Counted from the first letter of the stretch, positions 49,130-59,133 are shown. The stretch: DNA of 64,000 nt from Nitrososphaeria archaeon (GCA_050011875.1 JBEKIG010000005.1:70653-134652); one strand, 5' to 3'. The notes: a model not told the origin generated them from the letters alone. A program made the numbers and translations.

Positions 49130-49540
49130 TTATCTCAAAGCTTTAAGTTGATTTAATAAAATTTTGACTTTGCCTTCAACGTTATCCCTGACTCTTCTGA
49201 TATCTTCAATTGGTTTACCTCTTACGTCATCGACCTGCCATTTTTCCACCTTCCCCCTAACTGGAGCTGGGCATGCATCTTCATCACAACCCATCAAAAT
49301 TATTTTTTCTGCGTCCGTGTACATCCAACTCTCCAAAGCCTTCGGTTTGTTGCCGGAAATGTCTATTCCCCTTTCTCTCATCACCTCTACAACTAGTGAA
49401 TTTACTTCCCTAGCTGGTTTTGTACCAGCACTTACAGCATAATAGCTTTCAGGAGACATAGAGTTGAAGAAACCTTCGGCCATTTGACTTCTTCCAGAGT
49501 TACCAACACATATAAAAAGAACCATCTTCTTCTTCTGCAT
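49130..49540 (-). CDS. arsC: Arsenate reductase / LMW-PTP family
   Basis: CVGNSGRSQMAE P-loop, SAGT and GC...ACP motifs. Confidence 0.85.
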   Translation of the reverse strand: MQKKKMVLFICVGNSGRSQMAEGFFNSMSPESYYAVSAGTKPAREVNSLVVEVMRERGIDISGNKPKALESWMYTDAEKIILMGCDEDACPAPVRGKVEKWQVDDVRGKPIEDIRRVRDNVEGKVKILLNQLKALR

Positions 49541-49591
49541 TATAGTTACACTTACATTATCTTATTTAAATTTTGTAATGTCTCGATCGTA

Positions 49592-50752
49592 TTAACTTTG
49601 CAATACCTTGTAAGCTGCCTCAGTACCTAACCCAACTTTTTCAGTTATCTTCAACTCCTTTAATATCAGCTCTAAGGCTGGAACAAGTTGTATAAGGAAT
49701 TGTGGGCTAGCGGTTTCACCCATGTGTCCGATGCGAATAATCTTTCCCTCAACTTCACCATAGCCTGAGCTTATCATAAGACCGAATCTATCTATCAGAA
49801 GCGATATTATCTTCTTATCCATGCCATCAGGAACCTTAACTGCCGTCAGCACTGGTGATGCACCTTCTTCCTCTGGTAAAACATCAAGACCCAAAGCCCT
49901 AACCGCCGCCCGATAGGCTTTTCCTACCCTAAAATGTCTCTCATACCGCTTTCTAAGGCCTTCTTTAAGTGCCTTCTGCTCTGCCAAAAAAAAGGCCCGT
50001 ATAACGGATGTCGGAACCGAAGTGGGATGAGGGTGTCCCAAACTACTCCAATCTTCGACTTCACTAATGTAGGTTGGAATACTGAAGAAATAGGATCTAA
50101 TGGGGTTCTTCCTTTTTTTAGCAAACTCAATAAATCTTTCGCTTATCGCAATCGGGCAAACACCGTTTACACTTGAAAGGCATTTGCTTGCATAACCTAC
50201 CGCGTAGTCGACATCCCAGCCATCGAAATCGATTTCGATTCCACCAAAAGACGAGACTGCGTCGACAAGAAACAGTTTATCATATTTCTTGACAACCTTT
50301 CCAATGTCCCTGATATTATTTAGTATCCCTGAGCCCGTATCGTTTTGTAGCGCGTAAACCGCTTTAACATCTGGCTGTGTATCGAGTATTTCCTTAATCT
50401 TCTCCAGGTCAATTTTTGCACCATGCCTGCTTCTCACTTCAATAACGTTGGCGCCACAGTCTCTCAGCATATTTCCTTGACAGTCACCAAAAAAGCCATT
50501 TGTTATATTGATGACCTTATCGTTATCGCCTTCCAAAACGTTTGGTATAGACATCTCCACGGCAAGGGTGCCTGGAACGGGGACGATCGTAACAAAAGAT
50601 TTTGTACCAAAAATCTTCTTAGCATCTTCACATGCACTGTTATATAGTTCACCCCACTCTTGACCGTAATGCGCCATAACGGGTTTAGAAAGTTCAGCTA
50701 AGATGTCCGGGTCGGCCTCTGAAGGGCCGGGAATGAACAGTATTTTTCTCAA
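49592..50752 (-). CDS. Class V PLP aminotransferase (alanine/serine-glyoxylate type)
   Basis: IPGPS, VDAVSS, ASKCL and RIGHMG motifs. Confidence 0.9.
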   Translation of the reverse strand: MRKILFIPGPSEADPDILAELSKPVMAHYGQEWGELYNSACEDAKKIFGTKSFVTIVPVPGTLAVEMSIPNVLEGDNDKVINITNGFFGDCQGNMLRDCGANVIEVRSRHGAKIDLEKIKEILDTQPDVKAVYALQNDTGSGILNNIRDIGKVVKKYDKLFLVDAVSSFGGIEIDFDGWDVDYAVGYASKCLSSVNGVCPIAISERFIEFAKKRKNPIRSYFFSIPTYISEVEDWSSLGHPHPTSVPTSVIRAFFLAEQKALKEGLRKRYERHFRVGKAYRAAVRALGLDVLPEEEGASPVLTAVKVPDGMDKKIISLLIDRFGLMISSGYGEVEGKIIRIGHMGETASPQFLIQLVPALELILKELKITEKVGLGTEAAYKVLQS

Positions 50753-50998: not shown

Positions 50999-52162
50999 TT
51001 GCAAAAGGACAATGTGGGGTCCCGAAGGATCCTATCTTACGATGAGGAAATGAAGCTTATAGTGGAGTCCATAAAAAAGTTTGGTCCAAAGAATGTCTCA
51101 GAAATTGCGAGGGAAACAAACCTTCCGACAGAAACCGTGAGGTATAGGATAAAGAATCAGTTAAAGGACGTGGGGATAAGATACCATGTGAGCATAAACT
51201 ATCTTAAACTTGGACTAATACGGTCCTGGATACTTTTGGACTTCTCAATACAGAACCTTAAGCAAGCTCCAGATATTCTTGACCTGCTCTCAAAGAGGGG
51301 GTATCTGACCTATTTCGCCAAGGTCATACCTTATGGTTACTATATTTCCATTTCAACCTTACCGTACTCTGCTATAACTAAATATAGAGAGCTTTTAGAC
51401 GAACTTGTAAGATTGGACATTTTGAAGGAGTACAGGATGATCGACCTACAGTACCTTAAACACCTCTCTCTCAGGCCGGAGTTCTACGACTTCTCAACGA
51501 AGACGTGGAATGTGCCGTGGAACGTCATCGACGCGGATTTAAAGAGGGATTCGAAGCCGATAATAGTGGACTACTCAAGGGCTCCCATAGATAAGATAGA
51601 TCTTTTAATACTTAAGGAGCTCCAGATTAACGCTTTACAATCTCTGGCTTCAATTTCAAAGAAGATAAATGTGGCGGAAAAGCAGGTCAGATACCACTAT
51701 AAGTCACATCTTTTAAACACCAATATCATTGACGGTTATGTTGTAAGATGGCAAGGAGATAGGTATCATCTCACAAACAAGTACATACTATCATGTTTTC
51801 TTGAATTCTCAGATCTGACAGTATCAGATGTCCCATACATCCATAAAGTGATTGAAACTCTACCTTTCACTTGGATGATCGCGCTTTCTGTTGACCGAAT
51901 GAAGCTTATTACACAGATATCAATACCGATAGCCTTTTACCATGACTCGCTCGTCTACTTATCCAACAAACTAAACATATACAAGGAAAAATACAACCTA
52001 TACAACATCGACTTCTACAGCGCTGGATCTTATACGTTGCCATTTGAATCATTTAGCGATGACGTCGGATGGTCTGCTGACATAGACGGCCTAATGGAAA
52101 TGTTTCGAGCGAGAATCCAAGCTACATCAAAAGCTCACATAACAGACTATGTCGGAAAATGA
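50999..52162 (+). CDS. Large tandem-HTH Lrp/AsnC-like transcriptional regulator
   Basis: HTH1 PKNVSEIARETNLPTETVRYRI; HTH2 IDKIDLLILKELQ...SISKKINVAEKQVRYHY. Confidence 0.82.
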   Translation: MQKDNVGSRRILSYDEEMKLIVESIKKFGPKNVSEIARETNLPTETVRYRIKNQLKDVGIRYHVSINYLKLGLIRSWILLDFSIQNLKQAPDILDLLSKRGYLTYFAKVIPYGYYISISTLPYSAITKYRELLDELVRLDILKEYRMIDLQYLKHLSLRPEFYDFSTKTWNVPWNVIDADLKRDSKPIIVDYSRAPIDKIDLLILKELQINALQSLASISKKINVAEKQVRYHYKSHLLNTNIIDGYVVRWQGDRYHLTNKYILSCFLEFSDLTVSDVPYIHKVIETLPFTWMIALSVDRMKLITQISIPIAFYHDSLVYLSNKLNIYKEKYNLYNIDFYSAGSYTLPFESFSDDVGWSADIDGLMEMFRARIQATSKAHITDYVGK

Positions 52163-52222
52163 CATCAATAAATATTGAATCAAAAGATGATAAAATATAA
52201 CAATAGAAAAAAGGGGGGAGGT

Positions 52223-52363
52223 CTACAATACTTCTGATCCACCGATTTTCTGTCCTAGCGGAACAAGTTTCACTATTTCATGTCCTAGAGGAGTAAATCC
52301 TACAGCATATGATGAAATAGCAATCAAGACCAAGGCCAACTTTATCTTATCTTCTCGAGTCAT
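52223..52363 (-). CDS. Small 46-aa peptide with signal-peptide-like N-terminus (absent from ORF track)
   Basis: MTREDKIKLALVLIAISSYAVGFTPLGHEIVKLVPLGQKIGGSEVL*; A-rich BRE/TATA-like sequence about 30-40 bp upstream; pyrimidine/T-run just after the stop. Confidence 0.65.
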   Translation of the reverse strand: MTREDKIKLALVLIAISSYAVGFTPLGHEIVKLVPLGQKIGGSEVL

Positions 52364-52618
52364 GTTTATCTGGCTCTATTAATGAAAGGACAGGGATAAA
52401 TTTTTTTCCTTTAATAAATATTTTCTATAAAATAGATGTATTAAAACTTTTTATTATATAAATTTTTCATTAAAAAATTTATAATGTTTATAAATTATGA
52501 TATTCTATTAATTTACTGCAAAGATATTTTCACAATAATAAGGGAAGAGATTTGTGAAAATGTTTAGTAAAATTTAAATATCTATAATATAAAGCCATCT
52601 TAACTATATAGTGATAAG

Positions 52619-53520
52619 ATGTCATTAGAACATACAAAAATAGTGCATTCTGAATTAATAGAAGTGCTTAAAAGTATTTTTACACAAGAAGATAACGTAA
52701 TCAGGCTTATAATACAAAAAAACACAGGGGAAAAGTTCCTTTACCCGCCACTAGACAAAATGCTTTACATGAAGATTGATAAAATTCTTGATATTTTAGA
52801 TTTCATTGTCTCAAAACAATTTCTAGCAAAGAAGCAGTTTGAAATCCTGAAGTTCTGTCCGGTCTGCTTCTCATACGAAATTATCCCAACCGAGCACTGT
52901 ACAAACTGCGGTTCGACGAACATCTCTAGAGGGAGGATCATAGAACACTTTGCCTGCGGATACATGCCGAAGGCAAAGACTACCTGAGAGGAAAGCTGAT
53001 GTATAAGTGCCACGCATGTGGCAACCTATATGAATCACCGGTAATCGACTACCATTGCCAAAAGTGCGGAGAATATTTCCCAATAGAGGAGCTAGGAGAA
53101 ACCGTAGTATACCAATACGAAGTTGTTAACCACAAGATGGAAATGATAAAGAACTCTCTTAAAACACTCGAAAACCTTGAAAAAACACTTAAAGAGAAAA
53201 ACTATCTGGTAAAACGCGCTGCTCAGGTAACTGGAACGTCAGGGATTGCATTTGATGTTGACCTTTATGCGACAAATTCGGAAAAACAGGATAACATCCT
53301 CGCAGCAACGTATCTGTTAGAAAGCAATATAACTGTGGATGAAATATTACGATTACAGGCGTTGGGATACGATCTAAACTCAAAGAAGATAATCATGGTC
53401 ACATATTCCACCTTCGATCAGAAGGCAGAGTTTCTAGCAAACTACTACAATATTAAGATGGTTGTTCCAGAGAATACGGGCGAAATAAACGAAGAGCAGG
53501 CAATAAAGCTATTCCTTTAG
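52619..53520 (+). pseudogene. TackOD1-like zinc-finger / restriction-endonuclease-like protein, copy A, broken by a deletion of about 67 nt
   Basis: CPVC..CTNCGS..EHFACGY, then frame break at about 52965; CHAC/CQKC and GTSGIAFDVD in the second ORF. Confidence 0.75.
52850..52964 (+). repeat. 115-bp perfect inverted repeat, left copy
   Basis: Identical to the reverse complement of 56851-56965; flanking paralogous DNA is clearly diverged. Confidence 0.95.
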
Positions 53521-53523
53521 CTT

Positions 53524-55464
53524 ATGTCATTCTTAAAACTTCCTTCATTGTCTAATAAAAGAGTCAAAGCTAAGGCTGTTCCATTGGCTGTTGAGGAGGC
53601 TCAAACAGACCCGATTCCTGAAGATCTAAATATATTAGATGAATATTGGGTTAAGGAAAAATTTTCGCGTGTCGTCGTCGGTAGACTTCCAGAAGGATCT
53701 AACATAAATTATTATGTAGATGAAGTTAAACTAAAAGTCGAAGAAAAGGCAGCCTATATCAAAATTTTTGATATAATCGCGAAGGAGCTTAATCCAGCTG
53801 AAATTGGAAAGGAAGAAGACGTCCGCAAGGAACTTCTAGGTGAAGCGAAAAGACTAGGCCAAAAATATCGCATGGCGTTCAAGGCGATTAAGGCCGAAGG
53901 ATGGAATAGGATAAACTACTTTCTTGAGAGGGATCTCTTAGGTTTTGGGCCCTTAAACAGTATCATGTTGGACTATAGAATAGAAGACCTCAGCTGTGAT
54001 GGTGTGAACGTCCCGATTTTTGTGTGGCACAGGAAATTTGAGAGCATACCTACAAACATAAGGTTCTTGAACAAGGAGGATTTAGATGATTATATTGTTA
54101 AGTTAGCTCACAAGTCTGGTAAACATGTGAGTTCAGCGTTTCCAATCGTTGACGCCATGCTCTTTGGAAAACACAGGCTTGCCGCCAGTTTCAGGGACGA
54201 GGTTTCACCGAAAGGATCAACTTTTACGATTAGAAAGTTCAGGGAAGAACCGTTCAGCATCGTTGACCTTGTACAGATGGGCACAATAAATGATGAGATG
54301 GCCGCTTATTTGTGGATGCTCATCGAAAACAGGGCTACGATAATGGTTATCGGAGGCACCGGCAGTGGTAAAACCACAGTACTAAACGCCCTGGCGTCTT
54401 TGATTAAACCAGGAATGAAGCTGGTGACCGTCGAAGAAACCGCTGAGCTCAACCTTCCTCATGAGAACTGGGTGCAGTTCGTCAGCAGAGAAAGCTATGG
54501 ACTTACTGGCGCGAAGATCGGACAGATCAACCTTATGGATCTAGTTAAGACGTCATTAAGATATAGGCCTGACTATCTTATCGTAGGCGAAGTTAGGGGG
54601 GAGGAAGCTTACGTCATGTTCCAAGCTATGGCTACTGGACACGGTGGTCTATCCACGCTTCACGCGGAGAACATAGAATATGCCATAAGGAGACTTGTAA
54701 GTCCGCCGATGAACGTTTCTGAAACGTATATTCCTCTGATCAACCTTGTCATTCTAATCGAGCGTGTGGCCTTGCCTGCCCCGAGGATGGAAATGAGCAT
54801 AGGCAGGAGGGCACGCATGGTTTGGGAGGTTGAAGACTTCGAGAAGTATTCTAACATTTTCAGTTGGATCCCTCAAGATGACGTATTCCTTTCGAGAGCG
54901 AAGGACAGCGTTATACTCATGCGTCTCGCGGAAAGAATTGGTAAAAGCCGAAGGTGGGTCATCAACGAACTCGAACGCAGGAAGATAGTAATAAGGTGGA
55001 TGACAGACAAGGGCATACACAATGTCAAGGATGTTGCCCGTATCGTCTACCAATATTATGCTAACCCTGACACGTTGATAAGCAAGATTGAAGAAGAAGC
55101 TACGATAAAGGAGGAAGTGCTACAGCCGATCTTCGCAGTGGCACCTGCATTACCGGATTCATCAACCGTGGTTCCTGAAGCACCGGCAGAAGTAGAGACA
55201 CCGGTCAGATTCATAGAAGAATCGCTGATAAAGATATACGATATTCTCGTAGCTCTTGGTGGAACCGCATCTTTGGAAACCCTCGCAAAAGACACGGGTA
55301 TGGACGATGTCACTCTATGGAGATACCTGAACATACTCAAAGGATTCGGGCATGTTCAGATTGTTGAGAAGAAGGAAGGTGACAAGTTCTCAACATTCTT
55401 TAATCTAACAGAACGTGGAAGCAGCTCATACGAGACATTGAAGGCAAGGCTTTCTAGGAAATAG
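53524..55464 (+). CDS. Type IV pilus/archaellum-type secretion ATPase (VirB11/FlaI family) with C-terminal wHTH-like extension
   Basis: GGTGSGKT, TVEETAEL, LRYRPDYLIVGEVRG and TGHG..TLHA; Pro/Glu linker and helix-turn-helix tail. Confidence 0.92.
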   Translation: MSFLKLPSLSNKRVKAKAVPLAVEEAQTDPIPEDLNILDEYWVKEKFSRVVVGRLPEGSNINYYVDEVKLKVEEKAAYIKIFDIIAKELNPAEIGKEEDVRKELLGEAKRLGQKYRMAFKAIKAEGWNRINYFLERDLLGFGPLNSIMLDYRIEDLSCDGVNVPIFVWHRKFESIPTNIRFLNKEDLDDYIVKLAHKSGKHVSSAFPIVDAMLFGKHRLAASFRDEVSPKGSTFTIRKFREEPFSIVDLVQMGTINDEMAAYLWMLIENRATIMVIGGTGSGKTTVLNALASLIKPGMKLVTVEETAELNLPHENWVQFVSRESYGLTGAKIGQINLMDLVKTSLRYRPDYLIVGEVRGEEAYVMFQAMATGHGGLSTLHAENIEYAIRRLVSPPMNVSETYIPLINLVILIERVALPAPRMEMSIGRRARMVWEVEDFEKYSNIFSWIPQDDVFLSRAKDSVILMRLAERIGKSRRWVINELERRKIVIRWMTDKGIHNVKDVARIVYQYYANPDTLISKIEEEATIKEEVLQPIFAVAPALPDSSTVVPEAPAEVETPVRFIEESLIKIYDILVALGGTASLETLAKDTGMDDVTLWRYLNILKGFGHVQIVEKKEGDKFSTFFNLTERGSSSYETLKARLSRK

Positions 55465-55467
55465 AAG

Positions 55468-55914
55468 ATGAAGAAAAAAGGTATTAGTCCGGTAATTGCA
55501 ACGGTTATACTGATCGCTGTCGCGGTCGCTATTGCGATAGCAGTCGCTTTTTGGGCATCTGGATTAGTTGGGTCTTTTACACGCTTCGAAAAAATGGATA
55601 TAATTAATTATTATGCAACAAGGAATTCAGGTGATTACATTTTTACAATCAACATGGAGAACGCAGGCCCTTCAGAAATCGTCATACAGGACATATTTGT
55701 AAACGGTGAACCTCTAAATAGTTTTTGGAGCGCCGCTACGGTCAATGGAAGCTCTTTTAGCTCAATTTCAATCAACCCCGGCCAAAAGTGTGAGATCTTA
55801 GTTATGTTTCCTGATAACAATGGAGTAAGAGCTTTCTCGTCTGGACAGACGGTTGAAATTAGTGTTCAAACATCGTCAGGAGTCCATTACGTTGGAACAT
55901 TCCTATTATCGTAG
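55468..55914 (+). CDS. Archaeal type IV pilin
   Basis: Class III signal peptide MKKKG|ISPVIATVILIAVAVAIA. Confidence 0.92.
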   Translation: MKKKGISPVIATVILIAVAVAIAIAVAFWASGLVGSFTRFEKMDIINYYATRNSGDYIFTINMENAGPSEIVIQDIFVNGEPLNSFWSAATVNGSSFSSISINPGQKCEILVMFPDNNGVRAFSSGQTVEISVQTSSGVHYVGTFLLS

Positions 55915-55922
55915 CATTTATC

Positions 55923-55955
55923 GTCAACTACCCCATCTTGAAGGATGTGGCTTGT
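55923..55955 (+). mobile_element. Orphan IscB/omega-RNA (HEARO)-type element end hairpin
   Basis: GTCAACTACCCCATCT-TGAA-GGATGTGGCTTGT matches the GTCAACTACCCC-hairpin-GGGCTTG end of IscB-type IS200/IS605 elements; no IscB ORF follows. Confidence 0.7.
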
Positions 55956-56230
55956 AATATTAGGTGGATGCGGGCAAATTCAGAAGGGAGCAGAGCATTC
56001 TTGTTTCTCGAATTTTTACGTGAAGTGTTCAAGCTGGGAATCATGAATTCTAGCATTATGTTCTTGCAGATTTTCCCACTTTGACACTTCATAATTTAAG
56101 ATAAAAATCTGTAAAGATGTAGATGCCAATTAGGATTGTCAGTTTGCACCTATTACCAAAAGAAAACAGAATGGTAGATTAAAGAATATAAGAAAAAAAC
56201 AATAAATTCAAAAGCCATGTATGCTTTGCA

Positions 56231-57096
56231 CTAGAGTAGTTTTGTTACTTGCTCTTTTGTGATTTCTCCTGTCTTCTCTGGCAAGACTCTCTGTAAGTTA
56301 TAGTAGTCTGCCAAGGATTCCGCTTTTTGATCGAATGAAACGTGTGTGATGATGACGATCTTGTTTGCGTTCAAGTCATATCCTAGGGCCTGCAGCCTTA
56401 GTATTTCGTTAACTGTTAACTTATCCTCCAGGAGGTATGTTTCTGCCAGAATATTGTTTCCTTTGTCAGAATTAGTCGCGTACAGATCTACATCATACGT
56501 TATTCCTGATGTCCCTGTAACCCCTGTACTGCGCTTTACAGAATAGTTGTTTTCTTGAAGACTTCTTCCAAGTGATTCAAGTGCCTTAAGAGAACTCTTT
56601 ATCAACTCCATCTTATGGTCAGTAATTTCATACTGGAACACCACGGTTTCCCCCAGTTCTTTTATTGGGAAGTATTCCCCACATTTCTGGCAATGGTAGT
56701 CTATCACTGGTTCATCATACAGGTTTCCACAGGCATGGCACCTGTACATCAATTTTCCTCTAGAGTGATCTTCGTTTTCAACTAATAGTGAACTATGGCA
56801 TCTTGGACATTCAAGTCCGCCATTTGTCAAGAAGAGGCTTTCCAGGTTCTTGTATCCGCAGGCAAAGTGTTCTATGATCCTCCCTCTAGAGATGTTCGTC
56901 GAACCGCAGTTTGTACAGTGCTCGGTTGGGATAATTTCGTATGAGAAGCAGACCGGACAGAACTTGGTGGGTAGAGGAACCTTTCACCAGTGTTCTTTTG
57001 AAGTACTAGTCTTATGGAATTTTCTTCCTGAGCTAAAATGTTTTTGAGAACATCTATTAGCTCCGTATGTACAATTTGGGTATGTTCTGTTGACAT
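56231..57096 (-). pseudogene. TackOD1-like zinc-finger / restriction-endonuclease-like protein, copy B, broken by a deletion of about 100 nt
   Basis: Paralog of 52619-53520; lacks the segment equivalent to 52750-52849, causing a frameshift after FLYPP; 3' part intact. Confidence 0.75.
56851..56965 (-). repeat. 115-bp perfect inverted repeat, right copy
   Basis: Reverse complement of 52850-52964. Confidence 0.95.
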
Positions 57097-57291
57097 GTCC
57101 TTGTAAGAATTCTTAAATGTTGCATATTTAAGTCTTTTTGACAGAAGGTTATTAGCGATTTCCTAAGTCTTGCCGTTTTGTCGAATTCTTGTAGATATAT
57201 AGCATTTTACACATTTATTCAAATGAAGGTCAGCCTGTGGAAAAGATTATATCTAATCATAAAAGTAGTTTGTAGTTACAAGTGCTTTTTT

Positions 57292-59133
57292 GTGGCAGTA
57301 GCCAAACCGATCCTTGGATACATCGATTCTATTGAGGAGAATCCAAAAGCTCTATCTACACAAATAAAGGCTTTTCGGAGGATCCTCAAATACCATAAGC
57401 CTTACACGCACATCTTAGTTTTCATAACCGCTTTAGCCGTCTTAAGGTCATACTTATTTCTTCTAGAGCCTCTGTACACTTCGCAAATCGTAGATTTTGT
57501 CATCGGCACAAACCCTCCAGTAACCAGCAACATTACGATACTTGCGGGTTTGTTGCTGGACATCCTAATCGCAGTGATAGGCTTCGGAATAGTCAACTGG
57601 TTAATAGTGTACTTCAACGGCACCGTCGCACAGTCGGTGATGGGGGATATGAGAAGTGACTATTACAGGTCACTTCAAGGAAAATCATTCTCATTTTTTG
57701 ACTCCAATTCAGTGGGGGATCTCACTTCAAGATCAACACAAGACATGCAATTTGTTGACATGTTTCTCAGAACATGGCTGAGCGTTATAACTAACCTTAT
57801 TTTTACATTCATTTTCATATATTGGGTATGTTTCACGTTAAATCCAGTGATGGGCTTATTGGCGATAATACCTGTACCCTTCATGTTCTATACTCAAACC
57901 AAGAACTTCTTACTGACGATGCCGCTCTTCAGGAAGATGCAGCTGATTTTAGGCAAAATCGGCACTTACGTGCAACAGAACATCATAGGAATGAAGAACG
58001 TCAGAATCTTTCAAAGAGAAGATGAAATGGAGGAAGGCGATAGAGCTATTGTTCAAAAGTTCACCAACATAGCGATCAGGGCAGGCAAAATTCAAGCAAT
58101 ATACATGCCTTCTGCAACAGCTATCCTCACACTCGGCATCGTGCTTGTCTACTTCTATGGGACTAGCGAGATATTAGCGTTGGGATTATCGTTAGGTTTG
58201 ATTTTGCTATATGCGAGATACATTATGAGAGTGTCAGGTCCTCTTCGTGACTTCAGCATGTGGGTAGGCGCTATGAGCAACGCTACAGCAGGTGCTGAAA
58301 GAGTCTTCGACATAATAGATATGCCTGGAGATGTCGCGGACAAGACTGATGCAAAAGATATCGCGATAGACAAAGGCGAAGTTGAATTCCAAAACGTGAC
58401 GTTTGGATATGTTGAGGATAACCCCATCCTGAAGAACATAAGTTTTAAAGCTAATCCCGGCGAAAAAATAGCTATCCTTGGGGCTACCGGAACTGGAAAA
58501 ACGTCTCTGGTATACCTTATACCGAGATTCTATGATGTTAACTCAGGTAGCATACTGATAGACGGAGTAGATATCAGGAATTTTAAGGTTTCATCTTTGA
58601 GAAGACAGATAGGTATAGTTCCGCAAGATGTATTCCTGTTTTCAGGCACGATAGGAAGTAACATCGCATTTGGGAGGGACAATGCATCAACGGAAGAAAT
58701 CGTATCTGCAGCAAAGATGGCAAGGATAGATGACTTTATTGAAACACTTCCAGATGGATACAACACGTATGTAGGTGAGAGAGGAGTCACCCTTTCTGGT
58801 GGCCAGAAACAGAGGCTCACAATTGCCAGAGCGCTTGTAGCAAATCCTAGGCTCTTGATCCTAGATGATTCACTATCATTTGTAGACGCCAAGACTGAAC
58901 AGTCGATCCAAGAGGCTATCAATGAAGCTTTGAAGGGCAGAACATGCTTCATAATCGCACAGAGACTCTCAACAATAAAGAATGCCGATAAAATAATGGT
59001 TCTTGAGGAAGGTGAAATCGTCGAGTTTGGAACGCACAGCGAACTGATGGCTAAGGGGCAGATATACAAGAGGATATACGAAACTCAGTTCCTTGAAAAG
59101 ACCGCTGAAGAGATATTGGAGAGTACGAAGTAG
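57292..59133 (+). CDS. ABC exporter fused permease/ATPase (heterodimer subunit 1)
   Basis: TM domain plus GATGTGKT, LSGGQKQ and degenerate ILDDS; probable GTG start at 57292. Confidence 0.92.
   Translation: MAVAKPILGYIDSIEENPKALSTQIKAFRRILKYHKPYTHILVFITALAVLRSYLFLLEPLYTSQIVDFVIGTNPPVTSNITILAGLLLDILIAVIGFGIVNWLIVYFNGTVAQSVMGDMRSDYYRSLQGKSFSFFDSNSVGDLTSRSTQDMQFVDMFLRTWLSVITNLIFTFIFIYWVCFTLNPVMGLLAIIPVPFMFYTQTKNFLLTMPLFRKMQLILGKIGTYVQQNIIGMKNVRIFQREDEMEEGDRAIVQKFTNIAIRAGKIQAIYMPSATAILTLGIVLVYFYGTSEILALGLSLGLILLYARYIMRVSGPLRDFSMWVGAMSNATAGAERVFDIIDMPGDVADKTDAKDIAIDKGEVEFQNVTFGYVEDNPILKNISFKANPGEKIAILGATGTGKTSLVYLIPRFYDVNSGSILIDGVDIRNFKVSSLRRQIGIVPQDVFLFSGTIGSNIAFGRDNASTEEIVSAAKMARIDDFIETLPDGYNTYVGERGVTLSGGQKQRLTIARALVANPRLLILDDSLSFVDAKTEQSIQEAINEALKGRTCFIIAQRLSTIKNADKIMVLEEGEIVEFGTHSELMAKGQIYKRIYETQFLEKTAEEILESTK

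Follow-up and report, generated by a model that had tools for sequence, protein, structure and literature searches.

Two convergent genes in a 64,000-nucleotide stretch of DNA from a Nitrososphaeria archaeon (the window) have an about even chance of forming a self-contained module, in which a tandem Lrp/AsnC-type regulator is encoded next to the convergent gene of its cognate peptide ligand. The pair is most likely similar in function to the RRNPP systems without being a member of them. It is a candidate for peptide signaling in archaea because the tail of the peptide is predicted to dock into the regulator. The regulator gene and its parts are as follows.

50999..52162, plus strand: tandem Lrp/AsnC-type regulator, an open reading frame (ORF) of 387 aa
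51038..51169, plus strand: first winged HTH (wHTH), aa 14-57, with model helices at 14-28, 33-40 and 44-57
51176..51463, plus strand: first RAM-like beta-alpha-beta-beta-alpha-beta domain, aa 60-155, from the secondary structure of the model
51587..51718, plus strand: second winged HTH, aa 197-240, Pfam HTH_AsnC-type, E 3.3e-10
51728..52030, plus strand: second RAM-like domain (RAM2), aa 244-344, from the model and a profile match to 2pmh, 2e7w and 1i1g
52013..52051, plus strand: strand and loop after RAM2, aa 339-351, with Y-T-L-P-F, the main predicted contact of the peptide tail

Public sets place the start of the regulator 5 codons further downstream, which gives a protein of 382 aa. The initial annotation described a double Lrp/AsnC-HTH protein. 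Two Lrp-like halves were indeed recovered by the PDB-sequence profile and by the model, but Pfam recognized only the second HTH and no RAM domain. The family profile matched full-length Lrp/AsnC chains in both halves (6-147 and 193-301) and aligned the first HTH to PH0140 and PH1519, while the match of the second RAM-like domain to 2pmh/2e7w/1i1g reaches chain residue ~105. In Pfam, HTH_AsnC-type and HTH_24 were above threshold at aa 197-235 (PF13404 on aa 197-231, 40.1 bits against a cut-off of 27), HTH_20 and HTH_5 on the first HTH were both sub-threshold, and the RAM domain PF01037 gave no match at E<=0.01. The AF2 model (pLDDT 89.5, pTM 0.86) contains the wHTH and RAM fold twice, and its Foldseek matches to many Lrp/AsnC chains, spanning 141-154 columns, have a probability of 1.00; matches of the first RAM-like domain are Lrp/AsnC regulators such as 7fby, 9w4w and 2cyy. 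These profile and fold matches are significant, and both family features, the AsnC-type wHTH and the RAM fold, are found in the protein. An extra conserved aromatic stretch follows each RAM domain in the alignment and the model. The regulator is modeled as a single-chain pseudo-dimer of two wHTH+RAM units. Among 34 homologues, R48 is invariant and Y49 nearly invariant in the first HTH, and H233 and H237 are invariant in the recognition helix of the second. With conserved residues in both recognition helices, the regulator is a putative DNA-binding protein.

The small gene lies on the opposite strand, together with the elements that flank it.

52163..52222, no strand: spacer of 60 nt between the convergent stop codons, holding a T6 run
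52223..52363, minus strand: small protein gene, an ORF of 46 aa convergent to the regulator
52298..52363, minus strand: signal-peptide-like part, aa 1-22, with K/R residues at the N-terminus followed by a hydrophobic stretch up to the near-invariant Gly
52226..52267, minus strand: C-terminal core P-L-G-x-x-I-G-G and 4-residue tail, aa 33-46, the predicted regulator-binding part, from the interface of the predicted complex and motif conservation
52364..52618, no strand: divergent AT-rich intergenic region common to the small gene and the TackOD1 gene, 18.4% GC
52394..52409, minus strand: conserved A/T box (putative TATA/BRE-like), ~36 nt upstream of the small-gene ATG

The features previously claimed for this interval are present in the DNA, including the convergent 46-aa ORF with the described sequence and two PLG motifs, the 60-nt stop-to-stop gap to the regulator (mostly 3-77 nt in relatives), and the T-run after the stop, a terminator-like T6 on the minus strand (52208-52213 on the plus strand) that begins 9 nt past it. 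The region 52364-52618 is as AT-rich as had been stated, with 18.4% GC against 43.8% for the window, and the TATA-like element of the small ORF corresponds to the A/T box, which is kept in 5/5 aligned loci of family f1. TATA-like boxes lie at the same distance from the small gene in f6, f2 and f13 loci, and conserved TATA-like and GGTGA elements precede the TackOD1 start in the aligned f1 loci. The ORF had also been called unannotated; it appears in public sets as a 'hypothetical protein'.

The 46-aa ORF is a real protein gene under purifying selection. Orthologues occur in four related genomes (G002, G004, G005 and G007), and dN/dS is 0.04-0.27 with differences mostly at third positions (three groups). 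The family comprises at least 324 clusters at E<=0.001, none of them named, with a length of 36-48 aa. Its plan runs from a K/R-bearing N-terminus through a hydrophobic stretch with a near-invariant Gly at its end (34/36 aligned small proteins) to a conserved core, P-L-[DEG]-x-[IV]-G-G, and a variable tail of mostly 4 residues. Counting this Gly as -1, position -3 holds a small or aliphatic residue (V, A, T, L or S) in 31/34, and a signal-peptidase cut after the Gly may be read from this -3/-1 pattern. Mean K+R is 2.14 on the N-side against 0.33 on the C-side, and acidic residues follow the core; this charge distribution predicts an N-in/C-out orientation with the tail exported first. The median length of the uncharged stretch is 23 residues, and proteins of family f2 have merely ~10 hydrophobic residues ahead of the Gly. 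The N-terminal motif M-[ST]-x-[DE]-x-K-[IVL]-[KR] is conserved beyond the need of a generic signal n-region, which hints at a role other than that of an export signal. GG occurs in the last 9 residues of 134/135 representative proteins, and the tail after it is exactly 4 residues long in 119/134, with 61 different tails. Nine genomes have two complete pairs, and in 9/9 of them the sequence beyond the Gly is not the same in both peptides. The PLG motif is duplicated in the small protein of the window.

A flank scan of homologous regulators, the check proposed in advance, found a comparable small hydrophobic convergent ORF with a shared C-terminal motif. By profile (E<1e-4), the small gene is convergent and directly 3' of the regulator in 41/70 loci of the regulator family. 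A hydrophobic convergent ORF of 25-90 aa within 450 nt 3' of the regulator occurs at 33/70 loci, and the same rule at three control positions gave 9/70, 7/70 and 8/70, which is 3-4 times lower. In 29/70 regulator paralogues the peptide gene is missing; the fold does not depend on it. A whole-genome search of 401 Nitrososphaeria genomes returned 45 small-gene matches in 35 genomes: 41 adjoin a full-length regulator, 2 adjoin a regulator fragment truncated at a contig end, and 2 lie at contig ends, so that no small gene was found away from a regulator in this set (43/45 adjacent, 2 at contig ends). The pairing spans at least 9 family-level groups and extends to regulators with as little as ~25% identity, and the small protein is conserved across regulators of 25-34% identity while loci shift from AT-rich to GC-rich DNA. 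The pair is retained at loci where all other neighbors differ, and its hosts include many soil and hot-spring archaea.

Beyond the divergent region, the window contains a TackOD1 gene and two pilus genes.

52619..53520, plus strand: TackOD1-domain gene, copy 1, present as two ORFs in the window (Pfam TackOD1)
53524..55464, plus strand: FlaI/UpsE-like ATPase of type IV pili, extended at the C-terminus by an HTH-like part (T2SSE 1.8e-36)
55468..55914, plus strand: archaeal type IV pilin (arch_flag_Nterm above cut-off)

TackOD1 orthologues are intact (321-343 aa). At 52964|52965 in this gene, ~67 nt absent from the window are present in contigs of runs X1 and X2, and the split in the window is probably an assembly collapse. 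The pilus ATPase gave 1e-108 with the NCBIfam FlaI model, under that model's cut-off, and sub-threshold HTH_11 and cas_HTH matches at aa 558-617; the pilin gave 3.8e-13 with the UpsA model, also under its cut-off. A general tie of the pair to pili, as first proposed, did not survive the comparison: TackOD1 and pilus genes stand beside the pair in family f1 only, the neighbor in eight f13 loci is a VIT1 transporter gene, and other lineages have unrelated genes. The small gene is linked to the regulator, not to pili, and pilus control, suggested by adjacency, would be an output of this lineage at most.

The predicted complex, in which the last 14 residues of the small protein are placed on the regulator, agrees with the proposal of a ligand derived from the C-terminus. 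The ipSAE values were 0.71, 0.74 and 0.76, and the best of 3 controls was 0.00. In a benchmark, the ipSAE mark was reached by 116/157 solved complexes and 2/215 mismatched pairs, counts that hold only roughly with the alignments made for this analysis; the score itself is a model confidence. The runs have at least 71% of contacts in common, with a partner pLDDT of at least 54. The prediction puts peptide residues 33-46 into the cleft that separates the RAM sheets, where they meet the first HTH2 helix and the post-RAM2 strand (aa 339-351); predicted error is lowest for the contacts of regulator residues 344-350 with peptide residues 35-40. At T346, the commonest residue occurs in 95% of 41 partnered regulators vs 52% of 29 unpartnered ones, a difference confounded by kinship.

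Together with these data, the following mechanism can be proposed. The N-terminal 22 residues would act as a Sec-type signal (N-in/C-out) that is cut after the near-invariant Gly, and a peptide of 13-24 residues (median 15) would be released outside the cell. The peptide would then re-enter through an oligopeptide transporter. Two SBP_bac_5 genes above cut-off provide a candidate import capacity in the genome of the window, although oligopeptide-binding proteins are common and their presence is weak support. Inside the cell, the peptide would occupy the inter-RAM cleft, the place at which classical Lrp proteins bind amino acids. Its binding may alter DNA binding or oligomerization at the shared divergent promoter region, from which both the TackOD1/pilus genes and the peptide gene would be expressed in this lineage. 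Which regulator a given peptide fits may depend on its variable tail, in most cases of 4 residues. A wider hypothesis, which we regard as tentative, is that of a gene-encoded archaeal pheromone that arose independently of RRNPP with another receptor fold: an exported propeptide whose ~15-residue product returns into the double-Lrp inter-RAM cleft, with hypervariable 4-residue tails that define 'pherotypes' and up to two insulated channels per cell. In this lineage, such a system would link type IV pili to cell density or to kin recognition.

Two other readings keep the small protein in the membrane. It is unlikely that the uncleaved protein is a tether or anti-regulator that holds the regulator at the membrane by its tail and releases it on a membrane or envelope cue, which would be a non-diffusible, cell-autonomous switch comparable to that of small membrane proteins acting on sensors or anti-sigma factors. 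The strict pairing and the predicted tail binding fit such a tether equally well, the uncharged stretch (median 23 residues) could span the membrane in many members, the conserved N-terminus suggests a function besides targeting, and a gene for a CPBP/Rce1-like intramembrane protease lies near the pair in two loci (L042 and L057). However, a tether needs a cytoplasmic C-terminus, whereas the charges described above (K/R 2.14 against 0.33, acidic residues after the core) predict the opposite; the ~10 hydrophobic residues of the f2 proteins also speak against it, and a mere tether leaves the fixed-length hypervariable tail unexplained. The small protein might instead have its own function as a membrane-active or stress peptide and be a direct target or co-regulated neighbor of the regulator, with no contact between the two proteins, which we consider improbable. 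A conserved pair of neighbors can consist of a regulator and its target, the protein is short and hydrophobic like many membrane-active peptides, and the contact is a predicted one. That prediction passed, however, with each of the three controls scoring 0.00 and with an interface that falls consistently on the best-conserved segment of the peptide. A free-standing function would also be expected to occur alone at times, yet across 401 genomes the small gene was never seen apart from the regulator.

The best whole-chain structural matches of the large protein are NirDL (4ch7 and 4czc; E 5.7e-11, TM 0.53/0.63), probably because NirDL is the sole fused tandem Lrp fold among the matches listed. 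The large protein could be read as a siroheme-decarboxylase-type enzyme (AhbA/B, NirDL) or another non-regulatory Lrp fold, with the small protein as a substrate or RiPP-like precursor. According to PMC4145669, the AhbA/B active site is situated in a cleft that the two C-terminal domains form, and a conserved HXYXR motif faces the central cavity. The predicted peptide site falls in that cleft region. Sequence identity to NirDL is only 10%, NirDL is missing from the PDB-sequence profile matches at E<=1, HXYXR occurs in 1/70 family members at a non-equivalent place, both recognition helices carry invariant residues, and no modifying enzyme is found among the conserved neighbors of the pair, which together make an enzyme very unlikely. 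That the ORF is a chance product, or that what is conserved is a regulator-gene RNA or terminator, is barely conceivable. The ORF is short and was taken as unannotated in the window; this reading is contradicted by the positional controls (3-4 times lower), the 41/70 linkage, motif conservation and dN/dS of 0.04-0.27, and protein conservation persists across regulators of 25-34% identity despite the change from AT-rich to GC-rich DNA.

Archaeal cell-to-cell signaling is barely understood. In one case, the signal is a small molecule resistant to proteinase K, according to PMC12240190. Literature listings and abstracts yielded no description of an archaeal peptide-regulator pair and no Lrp-type regulator with a gene-encoded peptide ligand. 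The pair is directly testable, as it consists of two small genes with a 14-residue candidate ligand and a predicted pocket; natural variants are available by the dozen, and a candidate operator lies close by. If the module is real, it would widen the ligand range of Lrp/AsnC proteins from amino acids to peptides and provide a handle on regulation in uncultured, non-ammonia-oxidizing Nitrososphaeria of peat, soil and wetlands.

Several known systems resemble the pair in part. In double-glycine leaders of the bacteriocin type, GG ends an N-terminal leader, the cargo is tens of residues long, and export is by an ABC transporter with a C39 peptidase. This reading was rejected, with GG in the small proteins followed by 1-4 residues only; no peptidase-ABC transporter is a conserved neighbor of the pair, and an ABC exporter is encoded at 57178-59133 in the window. 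MgrB-PhoQ and Prli42-stressosome are cases of small membrane proteins that modulate or anchor signaling proteins, and the likeness lies in a single-pass protein of <50 aa encoded with, or acting on, a signaling protein. In contrast, the predicted contact here is made through the side that charge places outside the cell, and the partner is a soluble, putative DNA-binding protein. NirDL and AhbA/B (PMC4145669) are the only known case in which the inter-domain cleft of an Lrp fold, tandem or heterodimeric, takes up a large ligand, but the regulator stands apart by its low identity, the lack of HXYXR and no heme-pathway context seen at the loci. With Lrp/AsnC proteins (LrpA, FL11, Grp/ST1022, LysM, AsnC), the regulator shares an HTH_AsnC-type wHTH followed by RAM and an effector site between RAM domains; it differs in the fusion of two units in a 387-aa chain, in the absence of a match to the Pfam RAM model, and in the proposal of a gene-encoded peptide as effector in place of a free amino acid.

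RRNPP systems (Rap/Phr, PlcR/PapR, Rgg/SHP, ComR/ComS and AimR/AimP) belong to Bacillota and their phages, and consist of a cytoplasmic receptor-regulator beside a propeptide gene. The propeptide has ~20-60 codons with a signal-like N-terminus, its C-terminal part is the ligand, and several divergent cognate pairs can coexist in one genome. Homology to these systems was not supported, since the receptor fold is Lrp-like (2 x wHTH+RAM) instead of TPR repeats, and no TPR family was found in the regulator in Pfam or NCBIfam. The archaeal host, the strictly convergent gene order, the conserved core with a variable tail and the lack of sequence relation also differ, and secretion, maturation and Opp-type re-import of the peptide are putative here. 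The likeness comprises the adjacent small propeptide gene with a signal-like N-terminus (41/70 loci; charge and -3/-1 pattern). Binding of the C-terminal peptide by the receptor is a model prediction here (ipSAE 0.74 vs 0.00 for the best control). Tandem duplication of the pheromone motif is known in RRNPP systems (PMC11343458) and has a counterpart in the duplicated PLG motif of the window's peptide.

The regulator and the small gene lie in convergent orientation, as described in the initial annotation, and the features claimed for the small ORF were seen in the ORF listing and in the sequence.

50999-52162, forward strand: regulator ORF, 387 aa (ORF listing and sequence reading)
52223-52363, reverse strand: small ORF, 46 aa, convergent to the regulator (ORF listing and sequence reading)
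52364-52618: divergent intergenic region, 18.4% GC against 43.8% for the window

By sequence reading, 60 nt separate the two stop codons. The small protein begins with a charged N-terminus (M-T-R-E-D-K-I-K) followed by a hydrophobic stretch, contains the P-L-G motif twice, and ends in P-L-G-Q-K-I-G-G-S-E-V-L. A T6 run is found on the minus strand 9 nt past its stop, and the intergenic region on its other side leads to genes for a TackOD1-domain protein, a FlaI/UpsE-like ATPase, and a type IV pilin. The same small ORF, with position and orientation kept, is present in four of four related genomes whose regulators are orthologous to that of the window (84, 78, 65, and 63% identity); the named public relatives are Nitrososphaeria MAGs. 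The shorter form of the peptide has 36 residues. In the genus of the window, a 10-residue insertion (peptide aa 24-34) duplicates the P-L-G-x-x-I motif; it is present in the peptide sequences P0001, P0004, P0011, and P0014 and absent from the 36-aa forms. Pheromone motifs in tandem duplicate are reported for bacterial propeptides (PMC11343458). Pairwise dN/dS was calculated within three orthologue groups, named after family-level groups of the class Nitrososphaeria (the window belongs to f1).

Median dN/dS of the small ORF and differences at codon positions 1/2/3
f13-like group, 40 aa: 0.139; 632/324/1258
f1 group, 36 aa: 0.041; 16/14/51
f6 group, 45 aa: 0.268; 32/24/81

On this evidence, the small ORF is a genuine gene. 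Five aligned f1 loci share an A/T box that lies about 36 nt before its ATG, and the f6, f2, and f13 loci carry TATA-like boxes at the same distance from the ATG. A sigma-70-type scan gave 3 promoter-like sites against 3.7 expected and no terminators, and this bacterial model is uninformative for an archaeon. The runs listed for the DNA of the window are eight DNA metagenomes, with no RNA run among them. The best Protein Atlas scores for the peptide (0.78-0.80, to unnamed clusters) were below the meaningful level.

Across 401 genomes of the class, a search with the regulator profile (E ≤ 1e-20) matched 82 places in 48 genomes, with up to four paralogues in some of these and none in f5 (0/224) or f12 (0/78). 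Twelve fragments cut by contig ends were left out, and the remaining 70 full-length places were analyzed. Under the first rule, which called ORFs 25-90 aa long that lay no more than 450 nt from the regulator and reached 2.0 or higher in the Kyte-Doolittle maximum over 15 residues, such an ORF was convergent and 3' of the regulator in 33 of the 70 loci; the control placements gave 9 (same strand, 3'), 7 (divergent, 5'), and 8 (same strand, 5'). A peptide profile built from these ORFs was then run over six frames of the whole loci. The flanks of homologous regulators were found to hold a hydrophobic small ORF with a similar C-terminus, as the family occurs in 41 of the 70 loci at E < 1e-4, plus one degraded copy (locus L067), and every match is convergent and immediately 3' of the regulator. 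These peptides come from AT-rich as well as GC-rich genomes, and their regulators share as little as 25-34% identity with that of the window. The family plan consists of an N-terminal M-[ST]-x-[DE]-x-K-[IVL]-[KR], a hydrophobic stretch closing with Gly in 34 of 36 aligned members, and a C-terminal P-[LFM]-[DEG]-x-[IV]-G-G with a short tail. Across the whole 401 genomes, the peptide profile gave 45 matches in 35 genomes: 41 adjoin a full-length regulator, 2 adjoin regulator fragments truncated at the edge of a contig (G008:C45 and G009:C85), and 2 lie at contig ends with the neighbour out of view (G029:C11 and G050:C19). A phylum-wide sample of 400 further genomes gave no peptide match at E ≤ 1e-4, so none of the genomes searched beyond the class has the family, and the viral contigs searched contained no relatives of the regulator. 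At least 324 peptide clusters were found at E ≤ 0.001 in a set of 5.8 billion proteins; where named, all are called "hypothetical protein" and assigned to Nitrososphaeria or Nitrososphaerales, and they lack Pfam domains. The pair is confirmed to be widespread and strictly linked. No peptide gene accompanies the other 29 of the 70 regulators (e.g., L015, L017, and L077-L094), including all f3 paralogues examined. In many of the 29, Q or L replaces the aromatic residue at position 345, and regulators without a peptide gene may use another ligand.

Both its fold and its profile matches make the large protein a member of the Lrp/AsnC superfamily, in the form of a fused double unit. Pfam placed only the second HTH above threshold and did not match the RAM domain. 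In a profile built from 34 homologues, each half of the regulator aligns to full-length Lrp/AsnC chains, with positions 6-147 matching PH0140, PH1519, and PH0061 and positions 193-301 matching ST1022, LrpA, and PF0864. The AF2 model (pLDDT 89.5, pTM 0.86) contains a wHTH followed by beta-alpha-beta-beta-alpha-beta, twice, and an extra stretch with conserved aromatics after each unit; invariant residues R48, H233, and H237 lie in the two recognition helices. The top Foldseek match is the fused siroheme decarboxylase NirDL (TM 0.53/0.63, 10% identity), followed by Lrp/AsnC regulators. A passage of PMC4145669 gives HXYXR as the motif that marks AhbA/B. A siroheme decarboxylase of the NirDL or AhbA/B type is ruled out because this motif occurs in only 1 of 70 family members and at a different place.

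Contact between the two proteins was examined in one controlled complex prediction from their own alignments. Three runs gave ipSAE values of 0.71, 0.74, and 0.76, and the controls gave 0.00, 0.00, and 0.00; in calibration, 116 of 157 solved complexes and 2 of 215 mismatched pairs came up to the mark, counts that apply only roughly to the alignments used here. At least 71% of contacts were common to the runs, and partner pLDDT was at least 54. Since no experimental structure of an Lrp protein with a bound peptide is known to us, it seems unlikely that the predictor merely reproduced a known complex, but the result is still a model. The confident interface comprises peptide residues 33-46, which are the conserved core and the tail, and regulator residues 61, 63, 66, 98-107, 118, 155, 206, 209-210, 250, 252, 292-293, 306, 339-351, and 368. 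On the AF2 model, the latter fall on facing strands of both RAM sheets, the post-RAM2 strand, and the first HTH2 helix, and the predicted site is therefore the inter-RAM cleft. Lrp proteins bind amino acids at this cleft. In AhbA/B, tetrapyrrole is bound in the corresponding cleft, according to a passage of PMC4145669. Regulators with a partner carry T346 in 95% of cases and mostly an aromatic (F or Y) at 345, F alone in 63%, against 52% T346 and 38% F345 in those without a partner, figures that are confounded by kinship. Likewise, R or S at regulator position 344 goes with K-V or H-L in the peptide as a clade difference only, not as independent evidence. Linkage and complex prediction make a cognate pair likely. 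The earlier interpretation is supported in part, its pilus link being a local one. Direct binding is fairly probable on the predicted complex, and the peptide is proposed as the regulator's effector.

The small protein could act on the regulator either after export and re-entry or as an uncleaved membrane protein that holds the regulator there through its C-terminal tail. Among 36 members, K+R beside the uncharged core averages 2.14 on the N-side; on the C-side, which is dominated by acidic residues, the average is 0.33. According to the positive-inside rule, a positively charged N-terminus is kept inside and the C-terminus crosses the membrane, and the peptide is predicted to adopt this orientation because its K and R residues lie on the N-side. 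A membrane tether requires the C-terminus to be inside and is thus the less likely arrangement on the predicted topology. The charge distribution favours export and subsequent re-entry, in which the peptide would leave the cell and then be taken up again. Around the near-invariant Gly, position -3 is V, A, T, L, or S in 31 of 34 members and Pro does not occur at +1, a context compatible with a signal peptidase I site; cleavage after the Gly would release 13-24 residues (median 15). Two oligopeptide-type binding proteins (SBP_bac_5) above cut-off in the genome of the window weakly support peptide re-entry. The complete model of export and re-import signalling is tentative, with an even chance at best. 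A pilin or class III signal was rejected for the small protein, which has no [KR]-G/A cleavage motif and gave no match in Pfam or NCBIfam, and so was a double-glycine leader, as only 1-4 residues follow the GG.

The C-terminus combines a fixed length with a variable sequence. GG lies within the last nine residues in 134 of 135 peptide representatives, the tail beyond it is exactly four residues in 119 of the 134, and 61 different tails occur among the 135. Ten genomes have two peptide-profile matches each, and in the nine with two complete pairs, both peptides differ past the Gly. Insulated cognate pairs would be expected to look like this.

Pilus control had been proposed as the function of the pair. 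Pfam scans of 145 flanking ORFs in the 41 loci with a peptide gene showed that TackOD1 adjoins the pair in f1 only, and the link is to the regulator and not to pili. Eight f13 loci have a VIT1 transporter gene in divergent orientation to the small gene, four f6 and two f2 loci (L064 and L065) have NAD synthase upstream of the regulator, and a CPBP/Rce1-like protease is close by in two loci. The pair of genome G042 adjoins the ribosomal protein L15 gene, and all other loci have unrelated neighbours. Because neighbours differ by lineage, pilus control is a local output at most. The sister genome G001, searched for pilus genes persisting without the pair, holds only a TackOD1 copy adjoining an ABC transporter, in a stretch full of frame breaks. 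At its locus L096 (G001:C2, 3120-6800), ABC exporter genes matching window 57178-59133 are split into many ORFs, which points to sequencing errors or decay and makes this assembly a poor witness for presence or absence.

Further observations concern these flanks. In the f13 loci L037, L040, L041, L043, L044, L045, L046, and L048, the VIT1-family gene, which is iron/manganese transporter-like, shares a divergent promoter region with the small gene. This region contains the conserved boxes TCTTAAAA, TCATGCATAGGC, and TTAGAWTTCRC, which are candidate operators, and the VIT1-family gene is a candidate second output of the module. Upstream of the regulator, window 49130-50752 encodes a low-molecular-weight phosphotyrosine phosphatase and a class-V aminotransferase, which recur at the equivalent position in G005, G004, and G007, so synteny reaches that side of the regulator too. 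Passages of PMC5847659 and PMC4858521 that place arCOG06883 (TackOD1) within thaumarchaeal pilus loci do not mention the pair; the arCOG of the regulator might be among the pilus-locus neighbours given in Tables S1 and S4 of PMC4858521.

The ATPase and pilin genes are flanked by inverted TackOD1 paralogues at 52619-53520 (+) and 56231-57096 (-), both split ORFs in the window, which have in common an inverted repeat of 115 nt, perfect in sequence, with one arm at 52850-52964 and the other at 56851-56965. In contigs of two sequencing runs (X1 and X2) from which the window may derive, about 67 nt are inserted at 52964|52965 and about 99 nt at 56965|56966, and the 67 nt restore a 321-aa frame in the first copy, as in intact orthologues. 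The splits are probably assembly collapse at the repeat and not pseudogenes. Contigs break at this repeat, and "opposite strand" joints are reported there. Through this repeat, the segment with the ATPase and pilin genes (52965-56850) could become inverted; ATPase and TackOD1 are convergent in G007 (L031, 3035-4158) and co-directional in the window. The pilus ATPase (53524-55464) has weak, sub-threshold HTH_11 and Csa3-like HTH matches at aa 558-617, and this C-terminal extension is kept in G007. To our knowledge, it is unusual for a pilus ATPase to carry a fused HTH.

A literature search, covering part of PMC12240190 as a comparison paper on archaeal quorum sensing and other papers by their listing, found the peptide-regulator pair described nowhere. 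The analogy with RRNPP systems drawn in the initial annotation stands for the logic of receptor and propeptide and does not extend to membership. In RRNPP systems, a cytoplasmic receptor-regulator is encoded beside a propeptide that carries a signal and supplies the ligand from its C-terminus, and the same arrangement is predicted here. In contrast, the present pair is archaeal, lacks a TPR domain, and is built on an Lrp fold, and it is therefore not a member of the RRNPP family.
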